Made by a program: the position numbers and the translations under genes | In this document: one piece after another, positions 10,986-31,956 of the stretch | Numbering within the stretch: the first letter of the stretch is position 1 | How the letters are laid out: each line of letters starts with the position of its first letter | The notes under the pieces: model-generated | What the model saw: the letters and a program-made list of their open reading frames with translations, nothing else | What the model was told of the DNA's origin: nothing | The model's database searches: none | DNA from: a virus | Virus record (IMG/VR): IMGVR_UViG_3300013232_000047 | Location: 32,001 to 96,000 of that record | Direction: 5' to 3' (one strand) | DNA: 64,000 bases

Positions 10986-11285
10986 TTGCGCCGCAATCCA
11001 CATACTCTGGTGGACGGCGCAGGGGCCGTATTTACTTTTGTGAAACCAAGTATTGCAGCCGCAGCTATCCGTATAGGCGAACGAATTTTTGCTGGTAAAA
11101 CCCAGTTTGAGGCTGTCGGCAAGCTTGTCAGAACGCCCAATGTCAGTGCCGAGGAGAAAATCGAGATGCTACTAGCGGGCGAAGCCGGGTATGTTACCGA
11201 CGACGGCCAGTTCGTAAACACCGATGATGCTTACGAGATTTCGCGGCAAGCGGGTGTTGTTTCCAATGCGGGTGTAGCTCAATAG
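10986..11285 (+). CDS. Hypothetical phage protein (start uncertain)
   Basis: GYVTDDGQFV..DAY motif typical of small phage proteins; end overlaps tRNA-Gly. Confidence 0.5.
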   Translation: MRRNPHTLVDGAGAVFTFVKPSIAAAAIRIGERIFAGKTQFEAVGKLVRTPNVSAEEKIEMLLAGEAGYVTDDGQFVNTDDAYEISRQAGVVSNAGVAQ

Positions 11286-11341
11286 TAGAGCGCGTGCTTG
11301 CCAAGCACAGGACGACGGTGCGATACCGTTCACTCGCTCCA
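11268..11341 (+). tRNA. tRNA-Gly(GCC)
   Basis: Cloverleaf, loop TT-GCC-AA, encoded CCA. Confidence 0.9.
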
Positions 11342-11460
11342 ATTTTAGATCGTACGTTAAACCGGGAGTACTGCGATTAGCTATCGCAGGGTGGATGCGA
11401 AGGCCACACAGCTCAGGATCGGGGGTTGCAACCTCTGATCACTCTGGCCGGTCACTTTAT

Positions 11461-11536
11461 GGGGATATGGCGCGACAAGTAAGGCAGTTGCTTTGCAAGC
11501 AATTTCATGTGGGGGCGGTACCCACTATCTCCACCA
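11461..11536 (+). tRNA. tRNA-Ala(TGC)
   Basis: GGGGATA/TATCTCC acceptor with G3:U70, loop TT-TGC-AA, CCA. Confidence 0.85.
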
Positions 11537-12083
11537 CTGTTTTAGTAAGTGTAAACTTTCCTGTTTTGGTTAAAAAATGAAGTTCTAAATGACAGGTTGG
11601 GCACAGCACCTGTAGGTTTTTGGGTTTGTTATTTTTTCTATTTTTGTCTAGGTGGTGTACTTCTAGCACTTCTAAGTAACGGTTATATCCACATTTAGCA
11701 CATTTTGCACCATGCACGCGCAGTCCCACTTGTCTGTAAGCAGAGGCTCCTCCTTTAAAGTGCCGGAGAAGTTCTGGGTAATTTTCGGTACATTGTGCTT
11801 CGTCTCTGCATTTTCTGGAGCAAAAGTGTAATCCTGATTTGCTTAGACGTAGCCGTTTATTCGTTCGGTTAAAGTGTTTGCCACAAAGGCTGCATTCGAT
11901 TTGAACTTGTTTTTGGCTGTTTATTCCACTGCACTCTCTTGAACAGAATTTTTGAGCTAGAAAATGTTTTGGCACCCAAAAAGGTTTATCACAAATTTTA
12001 CAGCATTTTTGGTGCAGGTTTCTGGCTTTTCCATCGTAATCTTTAGACGTTTTAGCTTGCATCGTGTAGATATAACGTAGCAC
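11505..12083 (-). CDS. HNH homing endonuclease with zinc-finger repeats
   Basis: CxxC..FCSRxC repeats; CAKCG..LEVHHLDKNRKNNKPKNLQVLCPTCH. Confidence 0.9.
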   Translation of the reverse strand: MLRYIYTMQAKTSKDYDGKARNLHQKCCKICDKPFWVPKHFLAQKFCSRECSGINSQKQVQIECSLCGKHFNRTNKRLRLSKSGLHFCSRKCRDEAQCTENYPELLRHFKGGASAYRQVGLRVHGAKCAKCGYNRYLEVLEVHHLDKNRKNNKPKNLQVLCPTCHLELHFLTKTGKFTLTKTVVEIVGTAPT

Positions 12084-12184
12084 GCAAAGCCAGTCTTTTC
12101 CACCAATTTATGAGGTGGTAAACGTTAAAATAGTCGGTCGCAGGTGGAAATCCTGTTATCTCCACCATTTCGTGTAGTTAAGGC

Positions 12185-13252
12185 ATGGCAGCGATTATTC
12201 GATCCTACGGAAGGTCAGGCGTGAATCACATTCGTCCTGCGCCGGGAAGTTACTACCTTCGAGGTCCAGAGATTCGTGAGCCCTACATCCCACCGTATCC
12301 GCCACTTCCTGCACCTGTCGTGCCACCATCTCCGCCTTCAACGTTGCCCGTAGTCATTACAGGTGAAGTACGTTTGGAAGGTATTCCTTATGATTCTGCA
12401 GTGGTTGCCTTCAGTGGTTCCGGATCTGTGGTTACGGATTCTTTTGGAACTTATGTTGGAACGGTGAGCTATGGCTACACAGGCACATCTTCGCTTTCAG
12501 GCTTTGATTTGCCAGTGTATACGGTAACACCTTCTTATCGCAGCTATGCAGGTCTGTCTACGGATGTGGCAGGTCAGGACTTTGACGTTGACATCAACTT
12601 TCTCAATATTTCAGGAACCGTGACGGAGAATGGCACTGGATTTAGTGTTCCGATTACCAACGGTGCCGGGACGTGGGCAACGAGTTCAAATGGATCTTAC
12701 GGATACTACGTGCCGTATGGTTGGAGCGGATCAACTGTTCCTCTTTCTGGTAGCGGAACATTTTCTCCTGATTCGTATGTTTATGGTCCTGTTGGCATTG
12801 ATCATTCCAATCAGAATTTTGCATTCACAGCGTTTGCGCCTGTGCCGCCTACACCTTCTATTGTTGACTGGACATTCTACGGTCCCTACAGCCCGGCACC
12901 TGTGTCTAATGGGGACACCATGAATGAGGCTTTCATGACTGTGAACGCCGGTGCGTCATGGTTAACTGCAGGTCCTACTACCCATTCAGTTAAAAACGTA
13001 GGAGCGTCGCCGCTTACGATTACGGACGTTCAACTTGCGGGCACCGGCTGGACAATGGATCTGTGGGACTATACCAGCATGGTTCCGTTTGTTCCTCCTT
13101 CCGCGTTAAATGACATTCCTGCTGGAGCACCGTTCCTGTTTAATATCGTTTTGACAGCTTCTGGGACGGGCGGTTATTCGTCGGCAGTAGTCACGGTAAC
13201 GCATACAGGTTCTAACTCTCCTTATACTGTAAATCTTGAGCGCACAGCATGA
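12185..13252 (+). CDS. Beta-rich repeat protein, probable virion decoration protein; paralog of 23820-24488
   Basis: Repeats ISGTV..SNGSYG..YGWSGSTVP..GTFSP..NQNF; Gly/Ser/Thr rich. Confidence 0.7.
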   Translation: MAAIIRSYGRSGVNHIRPAPGSYYLRGPEIREPYIPPYPPLPAPVVPPSPPSTLPVVITGEVRLEGIPYDSAVVAFSGSGSVVTDSFGTYVGTVSYGYTGTSSLSGFDLPVYTVTPSYRSYAGLSTDVAGQDFDVDINFLNISGTVTENGTGFSVPITNGAGTWATSSNGSYGYYVPYGWSGSTVPLSGSGTFSPDSYVYGPVGIDHSNQNFAFTAFAPVPPTPSIVDWTFYGPYSPAPVSNGDTMNEAFMTVNAGASWLTAGPTTHSVKNVGASPLTITDVQLAGTGWTMDLWDYTSMVPFVPPSALNDIPAGAPFLFNIVLTASGTGGYSSAVVTVTHTGSNSPYTVNLERTA

Positions 13253-13803
13253 GAGCGCTGATAGTCTTAAACATGTGGTCGTTTAAGGAGTTGGACGAAG
13301 TAAAGGCTCATGACGCGATGTTCGGTGATAAGCTTCGTATTGTAACGCCGCTGAACATCGACTTTGGTAACGTATGGCAGGTGCCCGATTCTATGAAGCT
13401 TCGAGTGGAGTGGACCAAGCGTTTTCTGCGTCGGTTTTTGCAGGAGTCGCATGACGTGCTCGTAAAAATTGATCCAGACACCGTTATCAAGAAACTGCCG
13501 GACATGCCTGCCGATTGTGACGTGGCAGGTGATTTCAGAAAGTCATCTGTAGGCTGGGTGTGGCTGGGTGCTTGCCAGTACTATACGCGTTCTGCTGTGG
13601 AAAAGATTTTATCCGATCCGCTTTACATTAACGGTTGTTACTATCAGGACGCAGCGCTGGCTAGCGTTGTATGCAGAACTGGTTTGAGGGCATTCAACAT
13701 GCCAGAGATCGACGGCTGGAGCCAGCCGGGTTCTACATCTGCTGTAACACATCGAGCCAAAAGTTCTATTCCAAAACAACCTGCTGGATTTGTTGAATTT
13801 TGA
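13249..13803 (+). CDS. Small glycosyltransferase-like protein
   Basis: VLVKIDPD DxD motif, LGACQYY, YQDAAL; paralog of 21359-22105. Confidence 0.6.
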   Translation: MRALIVLNMWSFKELDEVKAHDAMFGDKLRIVTPLNIDFGNVWQVPDSMKLRVEWTKRFLRRFLQESHDVLVKIDPDTVIKKLPDMPADCDVAGDFRKSSVGWVWLGACQYYTRSAVEKILSDPLYINGCYYQDAALASVVCRTGLRAFNMPEIDGWSQPGSTSAVTHRAKSSIPKQPAGFVEF

Positions 13804-13948
13804 GTGTCGCACTATACGCCCGGCGGATGGCAGCTCCGGAGTCGCTCTACTAAAAGGGCTGGCGTTAGAACGGATAAGCACGTGGTTATCGCCATGTCAC
13901 CTGTGTTAGGTCAAAGCTAGTCTACGCATCTGCGACACTCAAAACTTT

Positions 13949-14025
13949 AGCCCTGTGGTGGAATTAGTAGACACATCCGACTTTGAATCGGACAATTGCA
14001 GGTGCGAGTCCTGCCGGGGCTGCCA
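13949..14025 (+). tRNA. tRNA-Gln(TTG)
   Basis: TCCGA-CTTTGAA-TCGGA, CCA. Confidence 0.9.
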
Positions 14026-14091
14026 TTTGCGGTGTTTGGGTGCAACAACCATTTGAGCCGAGCCGCATTAAAAGTTTCGGCGCGATTTCAT

Positions 14092-14164
14092 ACGGAGGGC
14101 ATCAGCTGTGCAGACTGGTCTCCAAAACCGGTCGTGTCGAGAGCGTCACTCGAACTCCGTGCCA
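14092..14164 (+). tRNA. tRNA-Trp(CCA)
   Basis: CTGGT-CTCCAAA-ACCGG, CCA; atypical D arm. Confidence 0.8.
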
Positions 14165-14279
14165 TTTTCAGCGGGCCTCTGTGCATTGCAACACGGGGAT
14201 ACAACAGACCTGAGACACGGCAACGAGGATTTGTATACGTCCAAGTTGGCCGCAGGAAGAACCGCTGAACAATTTTGTT

Positions 14280-14370
14280 GGTAGCGTGAGCCGAGCAGCG
14301 ATGGCAACAGACTGTAAATCTGTCACCCTCTGGGAAAACACCACTGGTGCGAGTCCAGTCGCTACCACCA
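14280..14370 (+). tRNA. tRNA-Tyr(GTA)
   Basis: ACAGA-CTGTAAA-TCTGT, long variable arm, CCA. Confidence 0.9.
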
Positions 14371-14373
14371 TTT

Positions 14374-14850
14374 TCAAGCTAACTGCTGCAGATGTTGTTG
14401 ATGATGTTGGTGATGACGGACGTTAAAGATCGAAAAATAACGTTTTAGTAGCGTGACTAGATCCTCTAGCGTAATAGGTTTAACGATCACCGCTAGAGCG
14501 CCATAACTGTCAATTAGCCTGTATACATCATCGTCAGGAAATCCAGTAATGATGAGTACAGGCACGTTGATGTCTAAGCGGCGCATCTCCTTAATGACTT
14601 CAAATCCAGTCATACCTACCATGCGGATATCCAACAGTACACCTGAAAACTGGTCTTCGGCTAGAGCTCTTAGAGCGCTGGCACCGTCGTTGGCTACTCT
14701 TGACGTACAGCCTAGCCGAGCTAATCCAAACGCCAGTACGCTACAAACAGACGCCTCATCGTCTACGATTAGAAAGTGCGAAGGTTTAGCCAGCTTTTCA
14801 GCCAATTTTAAAACTGTCATTGGCTCGTTTAACACAGCATAACTACTCAA
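14374..14850 (-). CDS. Stand-alone response regulator receiver domain (likely start 14820)
   Basis: LIVDDE, LLDIRM..MTG, IITG, KP motifs. Confidence 0.9.
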   Translation of the reverse strand: MSSYAVLNEPMTVLKLAEKLAKPSHFLIVDDEASVCSVLAFGLARLGCTSRVANDGASALRALAEDQFSGVLLDIRMVGMTGFEVIKEMRRLDINVPVLIITGFPDDDVYRLIDSYGALAVIVKPITLEDLVTLLKRYFSIFNVRHHQHHQQHLQQLA

Positions 14851-14861: not shown

Positions 14862-14939
14862 GGGACGTTAGCTCAGTCCAGTCAGAGCGCTCGCCTGTCT
14901 AGCGAAAGGCCACGGGAGCGAAGCCCGTACGTCCCGCCA
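14862..14939 (+). tRNA. tRNA-Asp(GTC)
   Basis: TCGC-CTGTCTA-GCGA, CCA. Confidence 0.88.
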
Positions 14940-14955: not shown

Positions 14956-15138
14956 ATGGCATTGACTGTACTCAAAGGTAAGAAGTTCAGTGTTTCTGTC
15001 AAATCGAAGGATAAGCGGCCAGATTACGTCAAAGTAGAACTGGTTGCAGGTGACAGAAGCCGAAAAGTATCACATCATCTTACACCGGCAGAGTGTAAGG
15101 TTTTTGCCTTCGCACTGCAGAAAGCCTCTAAAGCATGA
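14956..15138 (+). CDS. Small hypothetical protein
   Basis: 60-aa ORF after GTAGATAG motif, coupled to PAS gene. Confidence 0.55.
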   Translation: MALTVLKGKKFSVSVKSKDKRPDYVKVELVAGDRSRKVSHHLTPAECKVFAFALQKASKA

Positions 15139-15584
15139 TGATGAACGCACTTGAATTAGCACAGAAACTTACAGAAGCACGCGAAATTGTAGACGAAGCT
15201 ATCGTAAAAAATTGCCCAGTGCCGGTATTTTATGCCGATAAGGATGGAAAATTGTGCCGGGTTAACAACCTTTTGGGAAAATTACTGGCTGCAGATCCTG
15301 ATGATATTTTGGCTGATCGTTGGTTGAAGTTTGTAAAAGCAGGCAAGAAAGACTGGGAAGCTACCCTAAGAGCTAAACAAGATTCGACCAAAGTCTATTT
15401 GAAGCTTAAAGCAAGTGATGGAAGAGAGTTTGCTGTTTTTGTGAGTTTGATTCGATTAGTGAATGGTGGTTATATCGGATTTGTTTTACCAATTTGCGAG
15501 CATCCTACGGGGTGCCCGATGCATGGTTTCCTGCTTCACAATGTTGAGGATGATGGAACCAATGCAGCCCAAGTGCGTGGCTGA
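15135..15584 (+). CDS. Stand-alone PAS-domain protein
   Basis: IVKNCPVPVFYADKDGKLCRVNN..DDIL..WLKFV and KASDGREFAV pattern. Confidence 0.75.
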   Translation: MMMNALELAQKLTEAREIVDEAIVKNCPVPVFYADKDGKLCRVNNLLGKLLAADPDDILADRWLKFVKAGKKDWEATLRAKQDSTKVYLKLKASDGREFAVFVSLIRLVNGGYIGFVLPICEHPTGCPMHGFLLHNVEDDGTNAAQVRG

Positions 15585-15652: not shown

Positions 15653-15730
15653 CGAGCTGTAGCGTAGCCTAGTTAGCGCGTCTGTTTCGGGAACAGAAGG
15701 TCGTGAGTGCGAATCTCACCAGCTCGACCA
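15653..15730 (+). tRNA. tRNA-Pro(CGG)
   Basis: TCTGT-TTCGGGA-ACAGA, CCA. Confidence 0.9.
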
Positions 15731-16277: not shown

Positions 16278-16355
16278 CGGGGTGTAGCGAAGTTAGCCTA
16301 ACGCGCCTGATTTGGGGTCAGGAGATCATCGGTGCGAATCCGATCACCCCGACCA
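16278..16355 (+). tRNA. tRNA-Pro(TGG)
   Basis: CCTGA-TTTGGGG-TCAGG, CCA. Confidence 0.9.
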
Positions 16356-16361: not shown

Positions 16362-16438
16362 TGCTAGGTAGCTCAAATTAGTCGAGCGCGATATTGTTAA
16401 TATCGAAGATGTTGGTGCGAATCCGACCCTAGCAGCCA
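16362..16438 (+). tRNA. tRNA-Asn(GTT)
   Basis: CGATA-TTGTTAA-TATCG, CCA. Confidence 0.9.
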
Positions 16439-16862: not shown

Positions 16863-16938
16863 GCTCCCGTGGCCGAGTACACGAGGCATTCGCCTTCTGA
16901 GCGAATAAACGCAGGTGGGATTCCTGCCGGGAGTACCA
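16863..16938 (+). tRNA. tRNA-Arg(TCT)
   Basis: TTCGC-CTTCTGA-GCGAA, CCA. Confidence 0.88.
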
Positions 16939-16948: not shown

Positions 16949-17038
16949 GGAGGATTGGCTGAGTACTTAAAGCATCGGTCTTGAAAACCGAAGTCTGCCT
17001 TAAAAGCAGCGCAGGTGGAAATCCTGCATCCTCCGCCA
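16949..17038 (+). tRNA. tRNA-Ser(TGA)
   Basis: TCGGT-CTTGAAA-ACCGA, long variable arm, GCCA. Confidence 0.92.
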
Positions 17039-17189: not shown

Positions 17190-17277
17190 GGAAGATTGGC
17201 CGAGTCCAGTAAGGCACCGGCTTGGAAAGCCGGAGTCGTCGCAAGGCGCGTGAGAGCGAAGCTCACATCTTCCGCCA
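17190..17277 (+). tRNA. tRNA-Ser(GGA)
   Basis: CCGGC-TTGGAAA-GCCGG, long variable arm, GCCA. Confidence 0.92.
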
Positions 17278-17445: not shown

Positions 17446-17533
17446 GGAAGATTGGCCGAGTACTAAGGCTCCCGCCTCGAAAGCGGAGGACTAGGGTAAC
17501 CTAGCGCAGGTGGGATTCCTGCATCTTCCGCCA
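17446..17533 (+). tRNA. tRNA-Ser(CGA)
   Basis: CCGC-CTCGAAA-GCGG, long variable arm, GCCA. Confidence 0.9.
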
Positions 17534-17888: not shown

Positions 17889-18254
17889 ATGTACATGTAC
17901 ATTAAGCCAAAAGTCTACAAAAAGGGTTGGGGCCGTGAACACTGGCTACACAATTCTGAGAAATACGCCTTCAAGATTTTGGAGTTCAAAAAGGGTGGAC
18001 GTAGCAGTCTCCACTTTCACGCGAAGAAAACGAAGACGTGGTTCGTTGAGTCTGGTGGGTTTGAGGTAGTGTTTGTAGACGGTGCGAATGCAAAGCGCAT
18101 CAAGCTTACAGTTACCCAAGGTATGGTGTTTCACATTCTGCCCGGCATTCCGCACCAAGTTCGTTGCTTTATGGCGGGTAGAATATTTGAGGCTAGCACC
18201 CAGCACTTTGAGGACGACAGTTATCGCATCGAAAAAGGCGGTATCTGCCATTGA
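17889..18254 (+). CDS. Cupin (mannose-6-phosphate isomerase-like)
   Basis: KGWGRE..SSLHFH..PGIPHQ..EAST motifs. Confidence 0.85.
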   Translation: MYMYIKPKVYKKGWGREHWLHNSEKYAFKILEFKKGGRSSLHFHAKKTKTWFVESGGFEVVFVDGANAKRIKLTVTQGMVFHILPGIPHQVRCFMAGRIFEASTQHFEDDSYRIEKGGICH

Positions 18255-18257
18255 TTT

Positions 18258-18382
18258 TGACGGGTCGAACTGAATACGGGTTATCATATGTAAAATGAAC
18301 AACGTGAGTTCAATTCTCACCCATGGCTCCAAATGCCATGGCCTTGGAGGTAAACACTCCGTGTCTAAAACCTTACCCGTCA
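18258..18382 (+). ncRNA. Y RNA-like (YrlA-like, T arm plus acceptor-like hairpin)
   Basis: CGGGTCGAA..GGTTATC..CTTACCCG closing stem; internal GTGAG-TTCAATT-CTCAC then CCATGGC-TCCAAAT-GCCATGG. Confidence 0.7.
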
Positions 18383-18387: not shown

Positions 18388-18463
18388 GGTCAGTTAGCTC
18401 ATTTGGTAGAGCAGCGTCTCGATAAGGCGCAGGCGGCTGGATCGTAGCCAGCACTGACCACCA
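18388..18463 (+). tRNA. tRNA-Ile(GAT)
   Basis: GCGTC-TCGATAA-GGCGC, CCA; C33. Confidence 0.85.
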
Positions 18464-18469: not shown

Positions 18470-18545
18470 GTCGGAGTAGCTCAGATGGAAGAGCAGAAGA
18501 CTGAAAATCTTCGTGTCACCAGCTCGAAACTGGTCTCCGGCACCA
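18470..18545 (+). tRNA. tRNA-Phe(GAA)
   Basis: GAAGA-CTGAAAA-TCTTC, CCA. Confidence 0.92.
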
Positions 18546-18616: not shown

Positions 18617-18695
18617 GTCCGTGAGCGCAAAGTCGTCGAGCGACCTGCCCTTCAAGCAGGAAATCTAAGGGGTGCGAGTCCCCTCACGGATACCA
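18617..18695 (+). tRNA. tRNA-Glu(TTC)
   Basis: CCTGC-CCTTCAA-GCAGG, CCA; C33. Confidence 0.82.
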
Positions 18696-18702: not shown

Positions 18703-18777
18703 GGCCCGTTCGGCTATCAGCTAGGCCATCGGATTCTCAATCCGGGAAAGCGAGGGCGGCACTCGCACGGGCTACCA
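18703..18777 (+). tRNA. tRNA-Glu(CTC)
   Basis: TCGGA-TTCTCAA-TCCGG, CCA. Confidence 0.88.
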
Positions 18778-19525: not shown

Positions 19526-20188
19526 CTATTGCTTCGGTGGTCTACATGCTGGCGTGTACTGACCACCGTTTTCACGTAAAGCCTGTAGCGCGGCAACTAT
19601 CGGCACAGGTCTTCGCCCCATTCCAGAGTACCAGTAATGCGTTACTAAGGCGTCGGGGCAGAACGTTGAATCTGGGTTTTGTATAACAGCATCGGAGACT
19701 ATGTCTACATTTTCGTGAATAACGTTGAAATCACCTAGTATAGCTTTGAACGTATGTTGTTCCCAGAGCTGGTTACTGCTGAATCGTTGGTGAGATGCTA
19801 ATGACATTTCGCCCAAAAACAGCCATGTGGCCAAAAGTTGAACTGACCAAGCACAGTTTTTAAGGGCGAATACGCCGCAGCATACGCCACAAGAATCTGA
19901 AGAAATCAGCATTGGTTTTACAGTGCTTTGGAACAGATCTACGAGTGTGCGTTGCCTGTTTACGAATACCGCATCTGCATCAATCCAGAATATCCAGTCA
20001 CAATTGGCTATTTCCTGCTGGATTACGCGTAACTTGTTCCACGAAGGATTCAGGTTAGGATCAGGTAAGCTTCGATAGCACACGAAATCATAGCCGTGGC
20101 TCTGCGCGTAATGCCGATTGAGTTCGCAGGTGACGTCGCCGATGGCGCTCATTGCGTCATCATAAAGTGTCACGATTTTAATGCGCAT
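19526..20188 (-). CDS. Glycosyltransferase, GT34 (MNN10/GMA12)-like
   Basis: YAQSHGYDF, PSWNKL, DWIFWIDADAVF, WEQ motifs. Confidence 0.85.
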   Translation of the reverse strand: MRIKIVTLYDDAMSAIGDVTCELNRHYAQSHGYDFVCYRSLPDPNLNPSWNKLRVIQQEIANCDWIFWIDADAVFVNRQRTLVDLFQSTVKPMLISSDSCGVCCGVFALKNCAWSVQLLATWLFLGEMSLASHQRFSSNQLWEQHTFKAILGDFNVIHENVDIVSDAVIQNPDSTFCPDALVTHYWYSGMGRRPVPIVAALQALRENGGQYTPACRPPKQ

Positions 20189-21347: not shown

Positions 21348-21423
21348 GCTCCCGTAGCTCAGTTTATAGAGCGTCGCTTTCCTAGGGCGAATGTCGCTGG
21401 CGAGATCCCAGCCGGGAGTGCCA
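21348..21423 (+). tRNA. tRNA-Arg(CCT)
   Basis: TCGCT-TTCCTAG-GGCGA, CCA. Confidence 0.88.
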
Positions 21424-22125: not shown

Positions 22126-22201
22126 GCTCGCGTAGCTCAGTTTATAGAGCGCAGCCCTGCGAAGGCTGAGGTCGTTGGTGAGACTCCAACCGCGAGCACC
22201 A
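22126..22201 (+). tRNA. tRNA-Arg(GCG)
   Basis: CAGCC-CTGCGAA-GGCTG, CCA. Confidence 0.88.
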
Positions 22202-22244: not shown

Positions 22245-22862
22245 ATGATACGAAAATTATTTACGCCGTTGTTTACACCAATGTCTGATGCAGGCATGCT
22301 AGATCCGGGTAGGGCTGTAAACATTGCTCACTACGCTCTTCAGTGCTCAGAACTGCCGGGTGCAATGGTTGAGTTTGGATGCTATAACGGTTGTTCATCT
22401 GCAGTCTTAGCGGTAGTGGCTGATAAGCCGCTTTACGTCTATGACAGCTTTGAGGGGTTGCCAGAGCGTGCGCCACAAGATGTAGGAGCACACGAATCAT
22501 TCAAAGCTGGATCGCTGGCTGTCGGCGAACATGAGATTCATGCTCTTTTTGCCAAATACGATCTGCGCAAGCCGATTGTTTGGAAGCTCTGGTTTAATCA
22601 GGTTGGACCTGAGCATCTGCCAGAGAGCATCTGTTTTGCTTATCTGGACGGTGATTTTTACACCAGCATTCGCGATAGTTTGAGCCTCGTTTATCCACGG
22701 ATGGTGCCGGGTGCAGCCTGCATCATTGACGACTACGGTTGGGAGGCTTTGAGTGGTGTTAAGATCGCAGTTGATGAATACATGGCTGATAAGCCTGAAA
22801 AGGTGAAACAGCTCGTGACTGGGAATCCTAGTGGTCTTCACGCCGTTTTCATAAAGATTTAG
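22245..22862 (+). CDS. TylF/MycF/NovP-family O-methyltransferase
   Basis: GAMVEFGCYNG, YDSFEGLP, FAYLDGDFY, IIDDY. Confidence 0.92.
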   Translation: MIRKLFTPLFTPMSDAGMLDPGRAVNIAHYALQCSELPGAMVEFGCYNGCSSAVLAVVADKPLYVYDSFEGLPERAPQDVGAHESFKAGSLAVGEHEIHALFAKYDLRKPIVWKLWFNQVGPEHLPESICFAYLDGDFYTSIRDSLSLVYPRMVPGAACIIDDYGWEALSGVKIAVDEYMADKPEKVKQLVTGNPSGLHAVFIKI

Positions 22863-22869: not shown

Positions 22870-22943
22870 ATCCCGCTTGCATAATAGAAGTGCCTGAATC
22901 CTACAAATTCAAGGTGGCGGTGCGACTCCGTCGCGGGATACCA
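22870..22943 (+). tRNA. tRNA-Val(TAC)
   Basis: TGAAT-CCTACAA-ATTCA, CCA; C33. Confidence 0.82.
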
Positions 22944-22947: not shown

Positions 22948-23023
22948 GCCAGTATGCCTCAGCAGCTACAGGATTGGTTTTGTAAACCAATATTCGGCGG
23001 TGCGAGTCCGCCTACTGGCTCCA
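22948..23023 (+). tRNA. tRNA-Thr(TGT)
   Basis: TTGGT-TTTGTAA-ACCAA, CCA. Confidence 0.88.
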
Positions 23024-23026: not shown

Positions 23027-23103
23027 GTGGCCGTAGCTCAATTTAGCTAGAGCCGTGGATTGTGAATCCACCTATACGGATGCGAATTCCGTCGGCCACC
23101 CCA
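23027..23103 (+). tRNA. tRNA-His(GTG)
   Basis: GTGGA-TTGTGAA-TCCAC, C73, CCA; position -1 is T rather than G. Confidence 0.9.
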
Positions 23104-23107: not shown

Positions 23108-23182
23108 AGCCCGTTGGTCGAGTAGTAAGGCATCCGTCTGCAAAACGGAATTACGCTGGTGCGATTCCAGTACGGGCTTCCA
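23108..23182 (+). tRNA. tRNA-Cys(GCA)
   Basis: TCCGT-CTGCAAA-ACGGA, U73, CCA. Confidence 0.9.
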
Positions 23183-23557: not shown

Positions 23558-23632
23558 GCGGCATAGGTGCTGATAGACGCACGTGAGTTTTCCGAACTTG
23601 AGGAGTGGGCGCGATACCCACATGCCGCTCCA
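23558..23632 (+). tRNA. tRNA-Gly(TCC)
   Basis: TGAGT-TTTCCGA-ACTTG, GCG acceptor, U73, CCA. Confidence 0.82.
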
Positions 23633-23716: not shown

Positions 23717-23787
23717 CGCAGCAGGTCAAGTGACTGCGATGGTCCCATAAGCCGTCTAGCCCGGCGCGATACCGGGTGCTGCGACCA
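23717..23787 (+). tRNA. tRNA-Met(CAT), atypical
   Basis: ATGGT-CCCATAA-GCCGT, short D arm, CCA. Confidence 0.72.
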
Positions 23788-24494: not shown

Positions 24495-24570
24495 GCCTCC
24501 CTAGCTCAACTACTAGAGCATCTGGCTCTTAACCAGAATGTTGTGAGTGGAAATCTCACGGGTGGCACCA
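24495..24570 (+). tRNA. tRNA-Lys(CTT)
   Basis: TCTGG-CTCTTAA-CCAGA, CCA. Confidence 0.9.
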
Positions 24571-24573: not shown

Positions 24574-24645
24574 GCCGATACCGCCAGCGCGGATGCGAGT
24601 TCCGTAAACTTGCAGTGGTTGGAGCGACACCAACTATCGGCTCCA
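24574..24645 (+). tRNA. tRNA-Thr(CGT), atypical
   Basis: CGAGT-TCCGTAA-ACTTG, short D arm, CCA; C33. Confidence 0.72.
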
Positions 24646-24646
24646 C

Positions 24647-24721
24647 GGGGGTGTAGCTCAACAGTAGAGCAGCGGAGAGACAATCCGAAGGTCGTTGGGG
24701 CGGCACCAACCATTCCCACCA
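24647..24721 (+). tRNA. tRNA-Val(GAC), atypical
   Basis: CGGA-GAGACAA-TCCG, CCA; G32/A33. Confidence 0.78.
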
Positions 24722-25228: not shown

Positions 25229-25304
25229 GCTCCCGTAGCTCAATTACTAGAGCAATTGTCTTCGGAACAATTGGTTGCAGGTGGGATTCCTGCCGGGAGT
25301 ACCA
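25229..25304 (+). tRNA. tRNA-Arg(TCG)
   Basis: ATTGT-CTTCGGA-ACAAT, CCA. Confidence 0.88.
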
Positions 25305-26305: not shown

Positions 26306-26389
26306 GGGGATGTGGTTTACCCAGAATAGCAGATGGGACTCATTCAGATTGAGACAGCCTTGGAGGTGCGATTCCTCTTATCCCCACCA
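26306..26389 (+). tRNA. tRNA-Leu(CAG), atypical
   Basis: CTCA-TTCAGAT-TGAG, expanded D region, short variable region, CCA. Confidence 0.65.
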
Positions 26390-26397: not shown

Positions 26398-26474
26398 GCC
26401 CACGTAGCCCAACAGCAAGAGGCGCTAGTTTTAGGAACTAGCTGTTGTCGGTGCGAATCCGACCGTGGGTACCA
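26398..26474 (+). tRNA. tRNA-Leu(TAG)
   Basis: CTAGT-TTTAGGA-ACTAG, short variable arm, CCA. Confidence 0.88.
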
Positions 26475-26480
26475 ATTTGT

Positions 26481-26555
26481 GCCCCCGTAGCCCAACGCAG
26501 AGGCAACGGGTTTAAGCTCCGTTAAGTGCAGGTTCAAGACCTGTCGGGGGCACCA
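26481..26555 (+). tRNA. tRNA-Leu(TAA)
   Basis: ACGGG-TTTAAGC-TCCGT, short variable arm, CCA. Confidence 0.88.
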
Positions 26556-26558
26556 TGA

Positions 26559-26636
26559 CGCGCCGTAGCCCAACTAGCAGGAGGCAGCAGTTTCAAAAAC
26601 TGAACAGTGCAGGTGCGAATCCTGTCGGCGCGACCA
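26559..26636 (+). tRNA. tRNA-Leu(CAA)
   Basis: CAGT-TTCAAAA-ACTG, short variable arm, CCA. Confidence 0.88.
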
Positions 26637-26782: not shown

Positions 26783-26859
26783 CGCGGGGTGGAGCAGCCC
26801 GGAAGCTCGCGACGCTCATAACGTCGAGGTCACAGGTTCAAATCCTGTCCCCGCAACCA
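26783..26859 (+). tRNA. Initiator-type tRNA-fMet(CAT)
   Basis: CGCGGGG 5' end with C1:A72 mismatch, CT-CAT-AA, canonical TTCAAAT, CCA. Confidence 0.9.
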
Positions 26860-26978: not shown

Positions 26979-27063
26979 GGTCTCGTGCGCCTAACGGTAG
27001 GGCGGGGTTTACTTCCCCACGAAGTTTTACCCAGTGCTGGTTCGAATCCAGCTGAGACCACCA
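26979..27063 (+). ncRNA. tRNA-like RNA with extended non-anticodon arm
   Basis: Acceptor GGTCTCG/TGAGACC-ACCA, D arm, canonical T arm; central arm lacks a 7-nt anticodon loop. Confidence 0.65.
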
Positions 27064-27067: not shown

Positions 27068-27154
27068 GGGCGGTTAGTGACATTCAAATAGCACGTTGCG
27101 CCCCCGCAAGGGACGAGCGCAAAAGAGTCGGTGAAAAGCCGATGCCGTCCACCA
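27068..27154 (+). ncRNA. tRNA-like RNA with GCAA-capped central arm
   Basis: Acceptor GGGCGGT/GCCGTCC-ACCA; TTGCGC-CCC-GCAA-GGG-GCGCAA. Confidence 0.65.
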
Positions 27155-27644: not shown

Positions 27645-28088
27645 GGGGCCGTAATGGTTTCGATTTACGAAAACTTACGGTTATGACATGTCGAGGATGG
27701 CTATCGGCCTCGTTAAGTAGTAGCCACAAGTCAAATGCTGACAACAGTGATGACAATATCCTGAACATCGACAGTTTGCTGGCTCAAGCAGAGTCCATCG
27801 TGAATAACGCGGACGAAGTGTTGGCCCAGTTTCCTGTCGAACAGGAACTTGCTGCAGCCTGAAGTGCTGTAGGCGGTGCAGTGGAGACTCCTGCTATCCA
27901 TTGTATCGCTAAACTAGCAGGGAAGTGTTCTACCGAGCACAGTCGGTGGGCTTGTCGATAAAGCTTAATCGAATCCTGCAGTTACTTTTTAGCTATTTAA
28001 AGCCTGCAGGTATAAAAATAGAGAAGCATGTGTAAGTAACCGGCGAGAGGTCGTAAAGAAAGGGGTTCGACTCCCCTCGGCTCCACCA
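27645..28088 (+). ncRNA. ssrA: tmRNA
   Basis: GGGGCCG..TTCGA 5' end, G3:U70, 3' GGGGTTCGACTCCCCTCGGCTCCACCA; tag frame 27737-27862 ending LAAA*. Confidence 0.95.
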
Positions 28089-28095
28089 TTTTTAA

Positions 28096-28435: not shown

Positions 28436-28578
28436 TAGCGGGTCGAAATCGTTGGTTATCACCAAACTGTTTGTCGAAGGTTCGAATCCTTCTCCCGGCT
28501 CCATATGCCGGGGTAGCTCAGTTGGCAGAGCAATAGTCTTCCCGAAAGGGAATTTCCGACGGTAAACCTTATCCGCTA
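28436..28578 (+). ncRNA. yrlA: YrlA-type Y RNA
   Basis: GCGGGTCGAA..CTTATCCGC closing stem enclosing T arm, closed acceptor-like stem CCCGGC-TCCATAT-GCCGGG and D arm TAGCTCAGTTGGCAGAGC; upstream of Ro60. Confidence 0.85.
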
Positions 28579-28663
28579 TACTTTATGCAGTCAGCCTGTT
28601 CTTTGGCTACATGTTTCTTGCTTCAGTGTAGCCTAACTTTTCAGACAGGCTGACTGCGCTATT

Positions 28664-28726
28664 TTGTCGGGTCGAACGTAAAGGGTTATCTCTAAAAATC
28701 GCCCTTTGCCACCACTTACCTGACAA
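28664..28726 (+). ncRNA. Short Y RNA-like
   Basis: GTCGGGTCGAA..GGTTATC..CTTACCTGAC. Confidence 0.7.
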
Positions 28727-28732
28727 GAGCTT

Positions 28733-28890
28733 AAAAGTGTCGAGAGACCGCGTGTCGCTGGTTCAATTCCAGCCGTGTTCGCAGTAGCTCAGCGGTAGAG
28801 CAGCGCCGGAAGCGTGTGTCGCAGGTTCAAATCCTGCCTGTAAATGAACATGTAGCTCAGTGGTAGAGCAGCGAGTTCTCTCGACATTTT
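28733..28890 (+). ncRNA. Nested double tRNA-mimic RNA
   Basis: TGTCGAGAGA/TCTCTCGACA closing stem; order T arm, D arm, T arm, D arm, all with canonical GG and TTC. Confidence 0.75.
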
Positions 28891-28906
28891 TTGTCGTTTT
28901 TTCTAG

Positions 28907-28935
28907 TTGACGGAAAACACGTGATTCGATAGCTT
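28907..28935 (+). promoter_or_regulatory. Sigma70-type promoter, leaderless
   Basis: TTGACG-17-TAGCTT, ATG 6 nt downstream. Confidence 0.65.
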
Positions 28936-28941
28936 AGTCCT

Positions 28942-29304: not shown

Positions 29305-29320
29305 GTTACGTTTTTTCTAT

Positions 29321-29410
29321 GCCAATGTGAGCTAACCTAAAGGCTACCGCGTCCCGGAGAAAGTCTGGACAAGCGCGGCAGTGAGGGCGAAACCCCCTCC
29401 ATTGGCTCCA
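29321..29410 (+). ncRNA. tRNA-like RNA with extended central arm
   Basis: Acceptor GCCAATG/CATTGGC-TCCA, T-like arm GAGGG-CGAAACC-CCCTC, long arm capped by GAAA-containing loop. Confidence 0.6.
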
Positions 29411-29515
29411 ATTTCCGACGGGTCACCAACTTACCTGTCGGGTCAGTAAACCGCAAACGGCCCTCGCAGGGGCTTACGCGAGTTGGAGCGACTGCACAGA
29501 AGGAGGCGCAAAATT

Positions 29516-31222
29516 ATGGGCGCTATCAAGGTTAGTTCGTTAAATACTTCCCGCCAGCAGGCGCGGAACAAGAACCTCTCAGTTCAACAGCCTATTCCAG
29601 ACAAGGGGCAAGTGCTTAACAGCACGGGTGGCTACGTCTGGCAAGCCAATGACTGGGATCTGCTCACTCGGTTTCTTATTCTCGGTGTCGAGGGCGGCAC
29701 CTACTACGTGAATGAGCCGGAACTGTTGAAGAGTAACACAGAAGCCGTAAAGCGTTGCATTCATACGCACGGTGTTCGCACTGTAAAGGAAATCGTAGAC
29801 GTGTCTGTAAATGGACGTGCCTATCGTAACGATCCGGCTATCTACGCATTGGCACTGGCTACCTATCTTGGAAATCAAAAGACCACAGAGGCTGCATACG
29901 CAGCTGTTCCTAACGTGTGTCGCACCGGCACTCACCTGTATCACTTCGCCATGTACTGCGACGCCCTCCGTGGCTGGGGTCGTGGTTTGAAGAAGGCAGT
30001 GGGCCGTTGGTTTACGTGTCAGGACGCTAATCGTCTGGCCTACCAGATGGTAAAGTATCAGCAGCGGGATGGTTGGTCTGCGGCAGACTTGCTGCGAAAG
30101 TCACATCCTGTTGCCGAGGACGCTGCTCAAGATGCGGTGTTTCGTTGGGTCGTTGCTGGAATGGATTGCCTTGGTGCCCGTCAGATCAAGCGCAAGTGCG
30201 GTTCTACGGAACTGATACATGACTACGCAGACGTGACGGCACATCTGCCAAAGTTTATCGAGGTGTTTGAGAAGGCCAAGACTGCCAGTGAGAAGGAACT
30301 GGTCAAGCTCATCCTTGACCATGGTCTTCCTCGTGAGGGCGTGCCAACGGAGAAGTTGAACAGCGTCGCTGTTTGGGACGCACTGCTCCAGAAGATGCCG
30401 CTCACGGCCATGATTCGTAACCTCGGAAAGATGACCAGTATCGGGCTGTTGAAGCCGATGTCCGAAGGTTCTAAGCTGGTAAGTGAGCGCCTTCGAGACG
30501 CTGATTACCTGAAGAAGTCTCGTGTTCATCCGATGGCGGTGCTTGTTGCGTCCAAGGTGTATGCAAACAACAAGGGCTTGAAGGGCAAGCTGACGTGGAA
30601 TCATGTTCCGCAACTCCTGACTGCGCTTGATGAGGCGTTCTACGCGACCTTTGGCAACGTTGTGCCTTCGGGCAAGGATATGCTAATCGCGCTGGATGTA
30701 TCTGGTTCCATGTCCAGTGCAATTGCGGGTAGCGTGATATCTTCTGCGGAAGCTGTTGCAGCTATGTCTTTGGTTTGGGCATCTACGGAGCCGTCGGTTC
30801 ACGTGTTTGGATTTGCTAACACGTTTCGTGATCTGGGTATCCGCAAGGGTATGTCACTCGCTGAGGCAACGCGCCGGGCGCAAGACTCGAACTTCGGTTC
30901 GACAGATGTTTCGCTGGCTTACCAGTTTGCGCTTGATAACCGCATCAAGGTTGGTGGATTCATCGTAATGACGGATAACGAAGTCAATAGTGGTCGGCAC
31001 CCTGCGCTGGCTTTGCGTGAATACCGTGAGCGCTTTGTCAGCGATGCGCGTAGCGTCGTGGTTGCTACAGCTGCAACCAGATTCACGATTAACGATCCTA
31101 CAGATAAGTGGGGTTTGGATGTATCCGGGTTCGACACCTCGGTGCCGAACGTAGTCACCGACTTTATCCGTGGTGAGCACGTAAAGGCTGAAATGGATGA
31201 AGAAGTTTCGGTTGAGGATTAA
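29516..31222 (+). CDS. rsr: Ro60/Rsr TROVE-domain RNA-binding protein
   Basis: NSTGGYVW..LTRFLILG.EGGTYY, RTGTHLYHF, RGWGR, KYQQRDGWS, MPLTAMIRNLG, vWA MIDAS LDVSGSM, TDNE; AGGAGG upstream. Confidence 0.96.
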   Translation: MGAIKVSSLNTSRQQARNKNLSVQQPIPDKGQVLNSTGGYVWQANDWDLLTRFLILGVEGGTYYVNEPELLKSNTEAVKRCIHTHGVRTVKEIVDVSVNGRAYRNDPAIYALALATYLGNQKTTEAAYAAVPNVCRTGTHLYHFAMYCDALRGWGRGLKKAVGRWFTCQDANRLAYQMVKYQQRDGWSAADLLRKSHPVAEDAAQDAVFRWVVAGMDCLGARQIKRKCGSTELIHDYADVTAHLPKFIEVFEKAKTASEKELVKLILDHGLPREGVPTEKLNSVAVWDALLQKMPLTAMIRNLGKMTSIGLLKPMSEGSKLVSERLRDADYLKKSRVHPMAVLVASKVYANNKGLKGKLTWNHVPQLLTALDEAFYATFGNVVPSGKDMLIALDVSGSMSSAIAGSVISSAEAVAAMSLVWASTEPSVHVFGFANTFRDLGIRKGMSLAEATRRAQDSNFGSTDVSLAYQFALDNRIKVGGFIVMTDNEVNSGRHPALALREYRERFVSDARSVVVATAATRFTINDPTDKWGLDVSGFDTSVPNVVTDFIRGEHVKAEMDEEVSVED

Positions 31223-31251
31223 GTTCCGACAGAGGAACAGGTAGTTTACAA

Positions 31252-31290
31252 AGAGCGCCCCGGCGAAAGCTCGGGCGCTCTGTTCTATTT
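31252..31290 (+). terminator. Terminator-like hairpin after rsr
   Basis: AGAGCGCCC..GAAA..GGGCGCTCT then T-rich tail. Confidence 0.7.
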
Positions 31291-31296
31291 AAGCGT

Positions 31297-31611
31297 ATGA
31301 ACGCATCAATAAGTTTTCAGGATTGTGAAAGAAAAAGTCCGCCCGTGAATTATCCGATCATGTTTCTGGACGCTAAACCGTCTGGGATTGATCTTAAATT
31401 CAGCAAAGAAACCGATCCACGCAGCCGTCGTCCTAACGTCTACACTGTTTCTTTGACGCCAGCTGTTAAGATGGGCGAGTGGAACAATGTCGAAGGCGAC
31501 GAAGGCGACATTGAACAAGTGCAGTCTACAAAGCTTCCGCAAGGTACCCGAGTTGAAGGCATTTGGTGCGAAGCCGGGGAGCGACGCATCGTGGTGCTAG
31601 AATACGTTTGA
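31297..31611 (+). CDS. Hypothetical protein
   Basis: 104-aa ORF after TATTTAAG motif. Confidence 0.6.
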   Translation: MNASISFQDCERKSPPVNYPIMFLDAKPSGIDLKFSKETDPRSRRPNVYTVSLTPAVKMGEWNNVEGDEGDIEQVQSTKLPQGTRVEGIWCEAGERRIVVLEYV

Positions 31612-31616
31612 TTTTT

Positions 31617-31704
31617 GGAGGATTGCTAGAGTACTAATAGGCCGACCTGCTAAGTCGAGGCCGTCGTAAAAGGCGCACAGGTGGAAATCCTGTATCCTCC
31701 GCCA
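31617..31704 (+). tRNA. tRNA-Ser(GCT)
   Basis: CGAC-CTGCTAA-GTCG, long variable arm, GCCA. Confidence 0.9.
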
Positions 31705-31711
31705 TTTTAGT

Positions 31712-31789
31712 GGACCCGTAGCTCAATGTTTAGAGCACCAGACTCATAATCTGCGAGGTTGTGGGTGCGAATCTCCACCGGGTCCACCA
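31712..31789 (+). tRNA. tRNA-Ile2 or Met (CAT)
   Basis: CAGA-CTCATAA-TCTG, CCA. Confidence 0.85.
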
Positions 31790-31791
31790 AC

Positions 31792-31876
31792 GGGCACGTG
31801 GCTAAGAGGGAATTAGCAGACCCCTGAGCTTGAGAAGTTCAGAACCTTGGGAGTGCGAGTCTCCCCGTGCCCACCA
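31792..31876 (+). tRNA. tRNA-Leu(GAG), atypical
   Basis: TGAGC-TTGAGAA-GTTCA, expanded D region, short variable region, CCA. Confidence 0.75.
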
Positions 31877-31882
31877 ATTTTC

Positions 31883-31956
31883 GCCTTGCAAGCATTAAAG
31901 TGATGCAGCGCGCTTTTAACGCGCAGAACACGGAGCGTTACCGTGGCGGGGCACCA
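31883..31956 (+). tRNA. tRNA-Lys(TTT)
   Basis: GCGCG-CTTTTAA-CGCGC, CCA. Confidence 0.85.

Follow-up and report, generated by a model that had tools for sequence, protein, structure and literature searches.

A covarying A18/G55 elbow in the elongator tRNAs of a long phage tRNA array and of accessory bacterial arrays

The elbow of transfer RNA (tRNA), where the D-loop meets the T-loop, rests on G18–pseudouridine 55 and G19–C56, which are textbook near-invariants of the molecule. Here we describe the sequence pattern, covariation, conservation and distribution of a different elbow, with A18 and G55, carried by nearly all elongator tRNAs of a gene array on a 64,000-nucleotide stretch of viral DNA (the window; bases 32001–96000 of the 120,022-base IMG/VR virus contig IMGVR_UViG_3300013232_000047, CheckV completeness 53%). 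A literature search, with subscription journals and supplements outside its scope, returned no description of an A18/G55 elbow.

The closest described systems are the L-arrays of bacteria, in which dozens of head-to-tail tRNA genes, supernumerary to the dispersed set, spread horizontally; homing endonucleases and rtcB are found nearby, and Verrucomicrobia and Planctomycetes are among the carriers (Santamaria-Gomez et al., 2021, PMC8421152). The window and its bacterial counterparts fit this description: 38 tRNA genes lie on one strand within 20.7 kb, a far greater length than ordinary clusters assembled one gene at a time; the arrays of two bacterial genomes (G016 and G019) are supernumerary to a dispersed set; HNH endonuclease genes accompany the arrays, relatives of the window enzyme occurring at 29 of 148 array loci, with a gene for the RNA ligase RtcB in the array of G019; and the arrays are spread over several phyla and phage lineages. 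The bacterial G55 arrays are L-arrays of Santamaria-Gomez et al., and we assign the window array to a lineage of such long accessory arrays that moves horizontally and resides in jumbo phages as well as in chromosomes of Verrucomicrobiota, Planctomycetota and Myxococcota. Additional here are the altered elbow (the main text of PMC8421152 contains neither "T-loop" nor "G18"), the link to Ro60 and Y RNAs, and the jumbo-phage carriers.

Natural departures from the elbow consensus include the eukaryotic initiator tRNA (A54:A58), in which only positions 54 and 60 are changed, and many metazoan mitochondrial tRNAs, which lose the elbow, whereas the window tRNAs keep its pairs by matched substitutions (PMC7912444; PMC4810234). 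In the generalised T-loop motif, the second base is stacked on the first, the third faces outward and a foreign base intercalates between bases 4 and 5; the tRNA equivalents of base 2, base 3 and the intercalator are positions 55, 56 and G18 (PMC4810234). T-loops of flavin mononucleotide (FMN) riboswitches are UGNRA in 88.7% and CGNRA in 10.9% of cases, and the intercalator in FMN and cobalamin riboswitches is almost invariably an adenosine, which two hydrogen bonds join to the position-2 G at its sugar edge (bioRxiv 10.1101/2022.12.26.521914). The window loops resemble this YGNRA type (U/C-G-N-R-A, with an adenosine that bonds to the G of position 2 and intercalates after position 4, and two flipped-out bases); in riboswitches, however, the motif docks two helices, whereas in the phage tRNAs it would take the place of the tRNA-type loop, position 3 still forming a Watson–Crick pair with position 19. 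We know of no structure of a tRNA with a YGNRA-type elbow.

Two further systems bear on the biological setting. Phage tRNAs are reported to escape anticodon nucleases (PMC10264068; PMC11555353), and variants of phage T5 tRNAs escape the PARIS nuclease AriB, which reads D-loop bases (PMC12409363). These defence-escaping tRNAs (T5 against PrrC-type nucleases, retron Eco7 and PARIS/AriB) offer a parallel in that a phage set differs from the tRNAs of the host at nuclease-read bases; the T5 changes lie in or near the anticodon loop of few tRNAs, whereas those in the window lie in the elbow of nearly all elongators. Ro60 occurs beside tRNA-like YrlA RNAs, also in phages, and the T arm of Salmonella YrlA is a TruB substrate (PMC4201824). 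Ro60 likewise stands beside tRNA mimics in the window, with the difference that these mimics keep a canonical elbow and the real tRNAs do not.

With default settings for its threshold, ARAGORN called 24 tRNAs in the window, and Rfam RF00005 (gathering threshold, at least 29 bits) gave 28 matches at 9000–35000, one of which (28778–28845) is a Y-RNA mimic. Further genes came from ARAGORN at a lower threshold and from a scan for a 5-bp T stem that closes a 7-nucleotide loop, combined with CCA and an acceptor stem of six or more base pairs; about ten of the 38 genes are sub-threshold in Rfam or were found only by low-threshold ARAGORN, the T-arm scan or the covariance model described below. The total comes to 38 standard tRNAs at 11268–31956, all on the + strand and all with an encoded CCA (Table 1); four CCA-ending tRNA-like RNAs with an abnormal anticodon arm or a poor fold were left out. 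With 24 of 38 found, the default tRNA finder misses a third of the genes, which means that the tRNA content of phages is underestimated.

Position 55 is G in 34 of the 38 tRNAs and T in four (Ile-GAT, Phe-GAA, Leu-TAA and the initiator, fMet), and position 56 is C in 30, G in six and A in two. GG is absent from the D-loop core of every G55 tRNA (0/34) and present in three of the four T55 tRNAs, Leu-TAA being the exception. The six G56 tRNAs (Arg-TCT, Arg-TCG, Ser-TGA, Ser-CGA, Ser-GCT and Lys-CTT) each have TAC in the D-loop, and the two A56 tRNAs (Arg-CCT and Arg-GCG) each have TAT; a base other than T occupies position 54 in 12/38, and position 56 is not C in 8/38. Gene for gene, this agrees with the initial annotation of the window, which had reported G55 in 34 of 38 tRNAs with AG usual in the D-loop, AC with GG in the same six tRNAs, AT with GA in the same two, GG plus T55 in Ile-GAT, Phe and fMet, and T55 in Leu-TAA. 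The array tRNAs depart from the near-universal set of G18, G19, U54, U55 and C56, a departure that argues against calling them canonical but not against their working as tRNAs.

Outside the elbow the tRNA architecture is maintained. A covariance model built from 26 window tRNAs matched 255 times across the window and eight related arrays, and the 150 best of these matches were used. Of the 3149 stem cells in this structural alignment, 97.3% form pairs, a share that falls to 58.3% after shuffling and to 35–49% with slid partners; double-sided changes occur in 21/21 stem pairs, and the T-loop invariants G53 (148/150), C61 (148/150) and R57 (150/150) persist. Within the window, U33 is present in 29/32 anticodon loops and R37 in 31/32, and the acceptor stem has all seven pairs in 28/32. 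Identity elements include G3:U70 in tRNA-Ala and an extra 5′ G paired to C73 in tRNA-His, and the discriminator base is U in Gly, Cys and Thr, G in Gln, Asn, Asp and Ser, C in His and A in the rest, a set that fits bacterial identity rules.

The positions across the elbow vary together. Pairs 18:55 and 19:56 were counted alignment-free, from D-loop dinucleotides with a permutation test, because the variable D-loop is misregistered in alignments; an alignment-based count of 19:56 (MAFFT, covariance model) was tried and set aside, since its D-loop was out of register, with 41/150 cells unpaired and 25 apparent G18/G55. A purine followed by the Watson–Crick partner of N56 stands at a plausible 18/19 place in 33/38 window tRNAs; when T-loops were shuffled among genes the mean was 23.5 and the maximum 31, so that 33 was reached in 0/20000 shuffles. 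The five tRNAs in which this rule finds no candidate are Glu-TTC, the 71-nucleotide CAT gene at 23717, Thr-CGT, Leu-TAA and the Met-CAT gene at 31712. Among 182 unique tRNAs of the clade, T55 occurs with GG in 46/61, and G55 occurs with AG in 98/117 and with GG in 2/117. Loci from IMG/VR and GTDB were chosen by T-arm pattern only, the D-loop being no part of the pattern: in the former (609 tRNAs) T55 accompanies GG in 187/209 and AG in none, and G55 accompanies AG in 348/391; in the bacterial loci of the latter (509 tRNAs) the figures are 179/197 for T55 with GG and 260/309 for G55 with AG. The model alignment gives A/G 66, G/T 38, G/G 25 and A/T 1 at 18/55. As for 19:56 in the clade tRNAs, purine-G accompanies C56 in 150/158, purine-C without any purine-G accompanies G56 in 12/13, and purine-T accompanies A56 in 8/9. 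Positions 54:58 in the model alignment are T:A 92, A:T 23, A:A 19, C:A 10, G:G 5 and C:C 1; G54 is always found with G58 (5/5) and T58 always with A54 (23/23).

Non-G:C pairs at 19:56 (C:G, U:A, A:U) fall mostly in Arg tRNAs, in the clade as in the bacterial arrays. The arginyl-tRNA synthetase of E. coli reads A20, the next D-loop base, and the two facts may be linked.

Close relatives of the phage reveal rapid turnover of the elbow. Fifteen large relatives were scanned and their arrays fetched (G000 is the source contig). G55 is carried by 24/30 tRNAs in G003, 27/30 in G008, 38/40 in G012, 10/11 in G013 and 27/29 in G014, with a mixed array in G015 (7/15); in several relatives a suppressor or initiator tRNA is all that is present, or tRNAs are lacking altogether. 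The array of G001, whose capsid protein is 89% identical, is syntenic with that of G000, the longest common order being 28 of 39 and 44 genes (mean 9.6 and maximum 15 in 2000 shuffles). Of these 28 matched genes, 23 have G55 in G000 against T55 in G001, four have T in both and one has G against C; the unusual G56 and A56 states are common to the two arrays. The tRNA-Asp(GTC) gene of G001, for example, has TGG in the D-loop and ATCGAAG on a T stem identical to that of its window ortholog (Table 1). Six pairs of orthologs with a common anticodon and 80% identity or more have different bases at position 55, and in 6/6 the D-loop switches between GG and AG as well. One lineage therefore changed 18:55 in some two dozen genes, and copying of T arms is excluded as the route because the loops of matched genes also differ elsewhere (positions 57–60). 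A rule that both lineages avoid a TT step at 54–55 was considered and dropped, TT being kept in 17/45 G001 genes. Covariation of the stems and of 18:55, 19:56 and 54:58, the retention of G53:C61 and R57, the six matched ortholog switches and the identity elements all support what had been proposed from the window, that a folded but chemically distinct elbow is maintained by selection and is not decaying; the proposal stood up to each test applied.

The loops themselves suggest how such an elbow could fold. Those with G55 in the clade (n = 117) are YGNRA in 103 cases, AGNRA in nine, AGNRT in four and YGNRC in one; window loops are of the TGCGA and CGCGA kinds, their A54 versions and three GGCGG. 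Since UGNRA with an intercalating A is the riboswitch standard, the fold is plausible, and A18:G55 would represent the other standard solution of the T-loop motif, a contact that we infer for these tRNAs by analogy. By that analogy, R57 and A58 would hold A18 stacked between them, bonded to G55 at its sugar edge; position 19 would still form a Watson–Crick pair with 56 in any orientation, and G53:C61 and the 54:58 pair would still close the loop, leaving the L-shape and its flat outer face intact. The GGCGG loops, with G54 facing G58, belong to Ala-TGC, Glu-CTC and Val-GAC (Table 1); a GGAAG-type T-loop occurs in ribosomal RNA (bioRxiv 10.1101/2022.12.26.521914).

The substitutions also remove modification sites. 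U55, G18 and U54 are substrates of TruB, TrmH and TrmA, respectively (PMC7912444). With G55 and A18 in place, and a base other than T at position 54 in 12 genes, the corresponding modifications are impossible: lost are U55 for TruB (pseudouridine 55), G18 for TrmH (2′-O-methylguanosine 18, Gm18) and, in the 12 genes, U54 for TrmA (5-methyluridine 54, m5U54).

The elbow extends well beyond this phage. A search for two neighbouring G55-type T arms matched 47 stretches in IMG/VR; of five large carriers, one has a capsid protein 72% identical to that of the window, two have capsids 25–27% identical, and two are complete genomes (219 and 226 kb) with no detectable relative. In GTDB species genomes at least 120 stretches matched, 80 of which became loci; 40 of these hold at least two G55 tRNAs, and 36 hold no tRNA (about 34 chance matches were estimated). 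Assemblies of Verrucomicrobiota and Planctomycetota contain near-pure G55 arrays, some of which lie on contigs of 0.6–3.6 Mb; mixed arrays are found in Myxococcota, such as locus L171 with two G55 among 32 tRNAs, and in others. One locus in a cultured myxobacterium (L150, isolate Archangium lansingense MIWBW, on a 13.8-Mb contig) is a small array with two A18/G55 genes, Ala-CGC and Val-GAC, beside U55 genes, several of its genes being without an encoded CCA.

Bacteria with a canonical dispersed set thus carry A18/G55 in accessory arrays, and the elbow is not phage-specific. The dispersed tRNAs of two array-carrying genomes are all GG/TTC (31/31 in G016 and 7/7 in G019, 38/38 together), and the arrays of the same genomes are of the G55 type (18/18 in G016, and likewise in G019). 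The expectation in the initial annotation that host tRNAs would not share the elbow accordingly holds for the housekeeping set of these two bacteria with homologous arrays, and fails for accessory arrays. Hundreds of natural tRNAs, for almost every amino acid, keep the tRNA architecture while exchanging the elbow bases; if they work, much of the sequence invariance of the elbow would be owed to its protein readers and not to the demands of folding. As natural parts they make the role of pseudouridine 55, m5U54 and Gm18, and of the enzymes responsible, testable, and they provide a ready-made orthogonal elbow for tRNA engineering.

The same genome retains canonical elbows elsewhere. Its transfer-messenger RNA (tmRNA) has a canonical T arm (Table 1), and the Y-RNA-like mimics adjoining Ro60 have TTC in 4/4 T arms (TTCGAAT, TTCAATT, TTCAAAT) and GG in 3/3 D arms; their matches to the Rfam YrlA family are weak, scoring 29–33 bits where the threshold is 69. 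Genome-wide mutational bias and a general loss of need for the canonical elbow are therefore excluded, and the elbow change is specific to the translating elongator tRNAs.

The reading that we favour, an even call in our judgement, is that these are working elongator tRNAs with an orthogonal elbow that form a mobile backup set and probably escape factors that read the canonical elbow; function in translation and the selective agent are both parts that we infer. The arrays travel with an HNH endonuclease, often with Ro60 and once with RtcB, and in chromosomes they sit beside a canonical housekeeping set; their elbow would evade T-loop- or elbow-directed nucleases and other tRNA-targeting toxins or defences, making the tRNA corner a possible battleground of phages, mobile elements and bacteria. 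One tRNase, CdiA-CT E479, cuts the T-loop (PMC9086364); escape is favoured because of this precedent, the D-loop reading by AriB, the RNA-damage context of RtcB and Ro60, and the fast, lineage-wide switching between relatives.

Several observations weigh against this reading. G001 and G006 carry no G55 at all (0/45 and 0/44); both have A54 in 25 genes, and plain TT is found in 17 genes of the former and 16 of the latter, so G55 is dispensable in the clade. A general elbow-directed attack would still hit the initiator tRNA, the tmRNA, the suppressor tRNA and the Y-RNA mimics, all of which have a canonical elbow. Neither the window nor the relatives nor the bacterial arrays yielded an elbow-reading nuclease, toxin or defence gene, and a look-up of sequencing runs listed none of RNA in which the region is present. 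Pairing at 19:56 is looser in the bacterial set, where the matching dinucleotide accompanies G56 in only 6/9 and A56 in only 2/7 under the rule used here, and the model alignment, across variable D-loop lengths, pairs 72.7% of 19:56 cells. The canonical 38/38 of the dispersed bacterial genes was, moreover, drawn from top-scoring Rfam rows, a sample biased toward canonical genes.

Another form of escape gives the canonical mimics a part, and we consider it possible but doubtful: a factor in these bacteria that reads T54, pseudouridine 55 and G18 would be evaded by the translating tRNAs of mobile arrays and jumbo phages, with their A18:G55 or A54, and soaked up by the several canonical elbows of the Ro60-associated Y-RNA mimics. 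Candidates for such a factor are immune nucleases, inter-bacterial toxins and weapons that phages direct at host tRNA. On this reading, the turnover of G55 and A54 between close relatives would reflect an arms race whose site is the tRNA corner instead of the anticodon.

The main rival involves no escape from attack. On this account the elbow is independent of modification, being stable without pseudouridine 55, m5U54 and Gm18, so that tRNAs made in a burst, whether late in infection or on induction of L-arrays by translational stress, would work at once, with no wait or competition for TruB, TrmA and TrmH. Each recurrent change (G55, A18, and A54, C54 or G54) deletes a modification site; in a riboswitch screen YGNRA loops performed best in unmodified RNA, the tRNA-type UUCRA being classed as weaker (bioRxiv 10.1101/2022.12.26.521914); and the L-array of Anabaena is induced by translational stress (PMC8421152). 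It leaves unexplained, however, the canonical initiator, tmRNA and Y mimics of the same phage, the combination of U55 with A54 in G001 and G006, and the Ro60 and RtcB neighbours, and we rate it as rather unlikely, if more probable than the founder and DNA-level accounts that follow.

The alternative elbow could also be near-neutral, an equal solution that arose in a founder and spread by duplication, anticodon change and transfer of arrays by homing endonucleases. Arg-TCT, Arg-TCG and Ser-CGA share the T arm GCAGG TGGGATT CCTGC, which points to duplication or conversion, the HNH endonuclease widely accompanies the arrays, and the Myxococcota arrays are mixed. Yet 23/28 syntenic genes differ at position 55 between phages with capsids 89% identical, each switch taking two matched changes; G55 is near fixation in independent phage lineages (capsids 25–27% identical or with no detectable relative); and the non-tRNA mimics of the same genome have not drifted. 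A neutral founder therefore seems an improbable origin.

We give still less weight to selection at the level of DNA, in which the genes would escape recognition of the conserved GGTTCGAATCC box by a homing endonuclease, by tRNA-gene-targeting integrases or by recombination with host tRNA genes, A18 serving as RNA compensation. HNH endonucleases do flank or sit in the arrays, and T4 SegB is cited as cutting within tRNA genes (PMC8421152); but the matched variation at 54, 56 and 58 looks like selection on RNA, and the same HNH family is stable in chromosomes with dozens of canonical tRNA genes and therefore cannot cut the canonical box in general. That the genes are decaying pseudogenes or mispredictions, as the mere 24 default ARAGORN calls, the lowered Rfam scores and a few genes with odd D arms or without U33 might suggest, is scarcely credible in view of the covarying stems, the conserved G53:C61, the encoded CCA, the identity elements and a conservation that extends over phages whose capsids are 58–97% identical.

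Table 1. Positions of the array tRNAs and neighbouring features in the window, with elbow loops
Feature	Position	Strand	D-loop	T-loop	Remarks
tRNA-Gly(GCC)	11268..11341	+	AATAGTA	TGCGATA	A18 G19 / G55 C56
tRNA-Ala(TGC)	11461..11536	+		GGCGGTA	G3:U70 kept; G54:G58, G55
Second HNH endonuclease ORF	11505..12083	-			weak; inside array
tRNA-Gln(TTG)	13949..14025	+	AG	TGCGAGT	
tRNA-Trp(CCA)	14092..14164	+		AGCGTCA	missed by ARAGORN and Rfam; short D arm; A54:T58, G55
tRNA-Tyr(GTA)	14280..14370	+		TGCGAGT	long variable region
tRNA-Asp(GTC)	14862..14939	+	AGTCCAGTCA	AGCGAAG	
tRNA-Pro(CGG)	15653..15730	+	AG	TGCGAAT	
tRNA-Pro(TGG)	16278..16355	+	AG	TGCGAAT	
tRNA-Asn(GTT)	16362..16438	+	AG	TGCGAAT	
tRNA-Arg(TCT)	16863..16938	+	AGTACACG	TGGGATT	A18 C19 / G55 G56
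tRNA-Ser(TGA)	16949..17038	+	AGTACTTA	TGGAAAT	C19:G56
tRNA-Ser(GGA)	17190..17277	+	AGTCCAGTA	AGCGAAG	
tRNA-Ser(CGA)	17446..17533	+	AGTACTA	TGGGATT	C19:G56
tRNA-Ile(GAT)	18388..18463	+	GG kept	ATCGTAG	T55 kept; A54:T58
tRNA-Phe(GAA)	18470..18545	+	GG kept	CTCGAAA	T55 kept; C54
tRNA-Glu(TTC)	18617..18695	+		TGCGAGT	79 nt; odd D arm
tRNA-Glu(CTC)	18703..18777	+	ATCAGCTA	GGCGGCA	G54:G58
tRNA-Arg(CCT)	21348..21423	+	AGTTTATA	CGAGATC	A18 T19 / G55 A56
tRNA-Arg(GCG)	22126..22201	+	AGTTTATA	TGAGACT	T19:A56
tRNA-Val(TAC)	22870..22943	+	AATAGAA	TGCGACT	
tRNA-Thr(TGT)	22948..23023	+	AGCAGCTA	TGCGAGT	
tRNA-His(GTG)	23027..23103	+		TGCGAAT	extra 5′ G paired to C73
tRNA-Cys(GCA)	23108..23182	+	AGTAGTA	TGCGATT	
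tRNA-Gly(TCC)	23558..23632	+		CGCGATA	C54:A58, G55
71-nt tRNA, CAT in anticodon loop	23717..23787	+		CGCGATA	odd D arm
tRNA-Lys(CTT)	24495..24570	+	AACTACTA	TGGAAAT	C19:G56
tRNA-Thr(CGT)	24574..24645	+		AGCGACA	72 nt; short D-loop
tRNA-Val(GAC)	24647..24721	+	AACAGTA	GGCGGCA	A33 instead of U33 by fold reading
tRNA-Arg(TCG)	25229..25304	+	AATTACTA	TGGGATT	C19:G56
tRNA-Leu(CAG)	26306..26389	+		TGCGATT	84 nt with perfectly paired acceptor stem (ARAGORN: 26312-26389)
tRNA-Leu(TAG)	26398..26474	+		TGCGAAT	77 nt; no long variable arm
tRNA-Leu(TAA)	26481..26555	+	no GG	TTCAAGA	75 nt; T55 kept
tRNA-Leu(CAA)	26559..26636	+		TGCGAAT	78 nt
Initiator-type tRNA-Met(CAT)	26783..26859	+	GG	TTCAAAT	canonical
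tmRNA	27645..28088	+		TTCGACT	T arm canonical: GGGG TTCGACT CCCC
Y-RNA-like tRNA mimics	28436..28890	+			adjoin Ro60
Ro60/Rsr	29483..31222	+			TROVE and Ro60 vWA domains
tRNA-Ser(GCT)	31617..31704	+	AGTACTA	TGGAAAT	C19:G56
tRNA-Met/Ile(CAT)	31712..31789	+	no AG	TGCGAAT	
tRNA-Leu(GAG)	31792..31876	+		TGCGAGT	85 nt with perfectly paired acceptor stem (ARAGORN: 31800-31876)
tRNA-Lys(TTT)	31883..31956	+	TAAAGTG	AGCGTTA	A54:T58, G55
HNH endonuclease	32359..33003	+			at array end; commonest protein beside G55 arrays elsewhere

Two of the protein-coding neighbours recur with the arrays. When the window open reading frames (ORFs) of at least 70 amino acids at 9700–34200 were compared by tblastn with 148 array loci, only Ro60 and the HNH endonuclease of the array end were found again, and no G55-specific partner enzyme appeared; Ro60 homologs occur at seven GTDB array loci, and relatives of the HNH endonuclease lie at 17 GTDB and 11 IMG/VR loci. 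Homologs with 50–54% identity to Ro60 lie inside bacterial G55 arrays. RtcB is encoded inside the chromosomal G55 array of G019 (locus L257, 15545–16675, contig C4), which is flanked by two transposases, an AAA_21/SMC-like ATPase and ordinary cell genes; a BLAST comparison of the ORFs of the 120-kb phage contig with those of 15 bacterial array loci, L257 included, gave no RtcB relative in the phage. Pfam and PHROGs returned nothing for the ORFs of 355, 184, 326, 248 and 228 amino acids inside the array. ORFs are interspersed with the tRNA genes at 20190–21320 (-), 19526–20188 (-), 22245–22862 (+), 14374–14850 (-) and 15135–15584 (+), and the products of interspersed ORFs comprise a tubulin/FtsZ-like GTPase, a glycosyltransferase, a TylF-type methyltransferase, a response-regulator receiver domain and a weak PAS domain.

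The tmRNA scores 107 bits in Rfam and was not called by ARAGORN; its internal open frame ends in ELAAA. The four tRNA-like RNAs left out of the count (18247–18331, 26979–27063, 27068–27154 and 29321–29410; 85–90 nucleotides) have good acceptor and T arms, with canonical TTC in two T-loops and G55 in the other two (TGAAAAG, CGAAACC), and may be further Y-like RNAs or special tRNAs.

The Leu tRNAs are unusual in length. Bacterial tRNA-Leu normally has a long variable arm, unlike Leu-TAG, Leu-TAA and Leu-CAA at 26398–26636, which at 75–78 nucleotides are without one; short Leu genes are shared by the bacterial arrays. Leu-CAG and Leu-GAG (84–85 nucleotides) have 6–7 extra bases between the acceptor and D stems, and normal 85-nucleotide Leu genes are present in the more distant relatives G012 and G014.

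The window has a G+C content of about 49% throughout and encodes the tailed-phage markers major head protein (57182–58657) and prohead protease. The major head protein is at most 29% identical to that of any cultured phage and has 52 IMG/VR relatives at 31–97% identity, several on contigs of 200–240 kb. Megablast matched the tRNA region to no cultured phage, and a distant BLAST search of the Val-Thr-His-Cys cluster against cultured phages gave only a generic 76–78% likeness to T4-like tRNA-His. The absence of close cultured relatives, together with the related contigs of 200–240 kb, identifies the source as an uncultured jumbo phage. As to its host, a look-up of the DNA ligase in Atlas returned mixed taxa and no hint, and no relative of the phage capsid was found in five bacterial genomes that hold G55 arrays; for 14/23 window tRNAs the best same-anticodon match (57–85% identity) lies in loci labelled Verrucomicrobiota, which serves as a host hint only.

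An amber suppressor tRNA (CTA) with a canonical elbow is located outside the array, at 4837–4912 of the source contig and 27 kb upstream of the window. Relatives without arrays (loci L055, L058, L059, L067, L069 and L071) still carry one suppressor (CTA or TTA), and the capsid match in genome G026 contains one in-frame TAG; recoding of stop codons in late genes is possible in this phage group.

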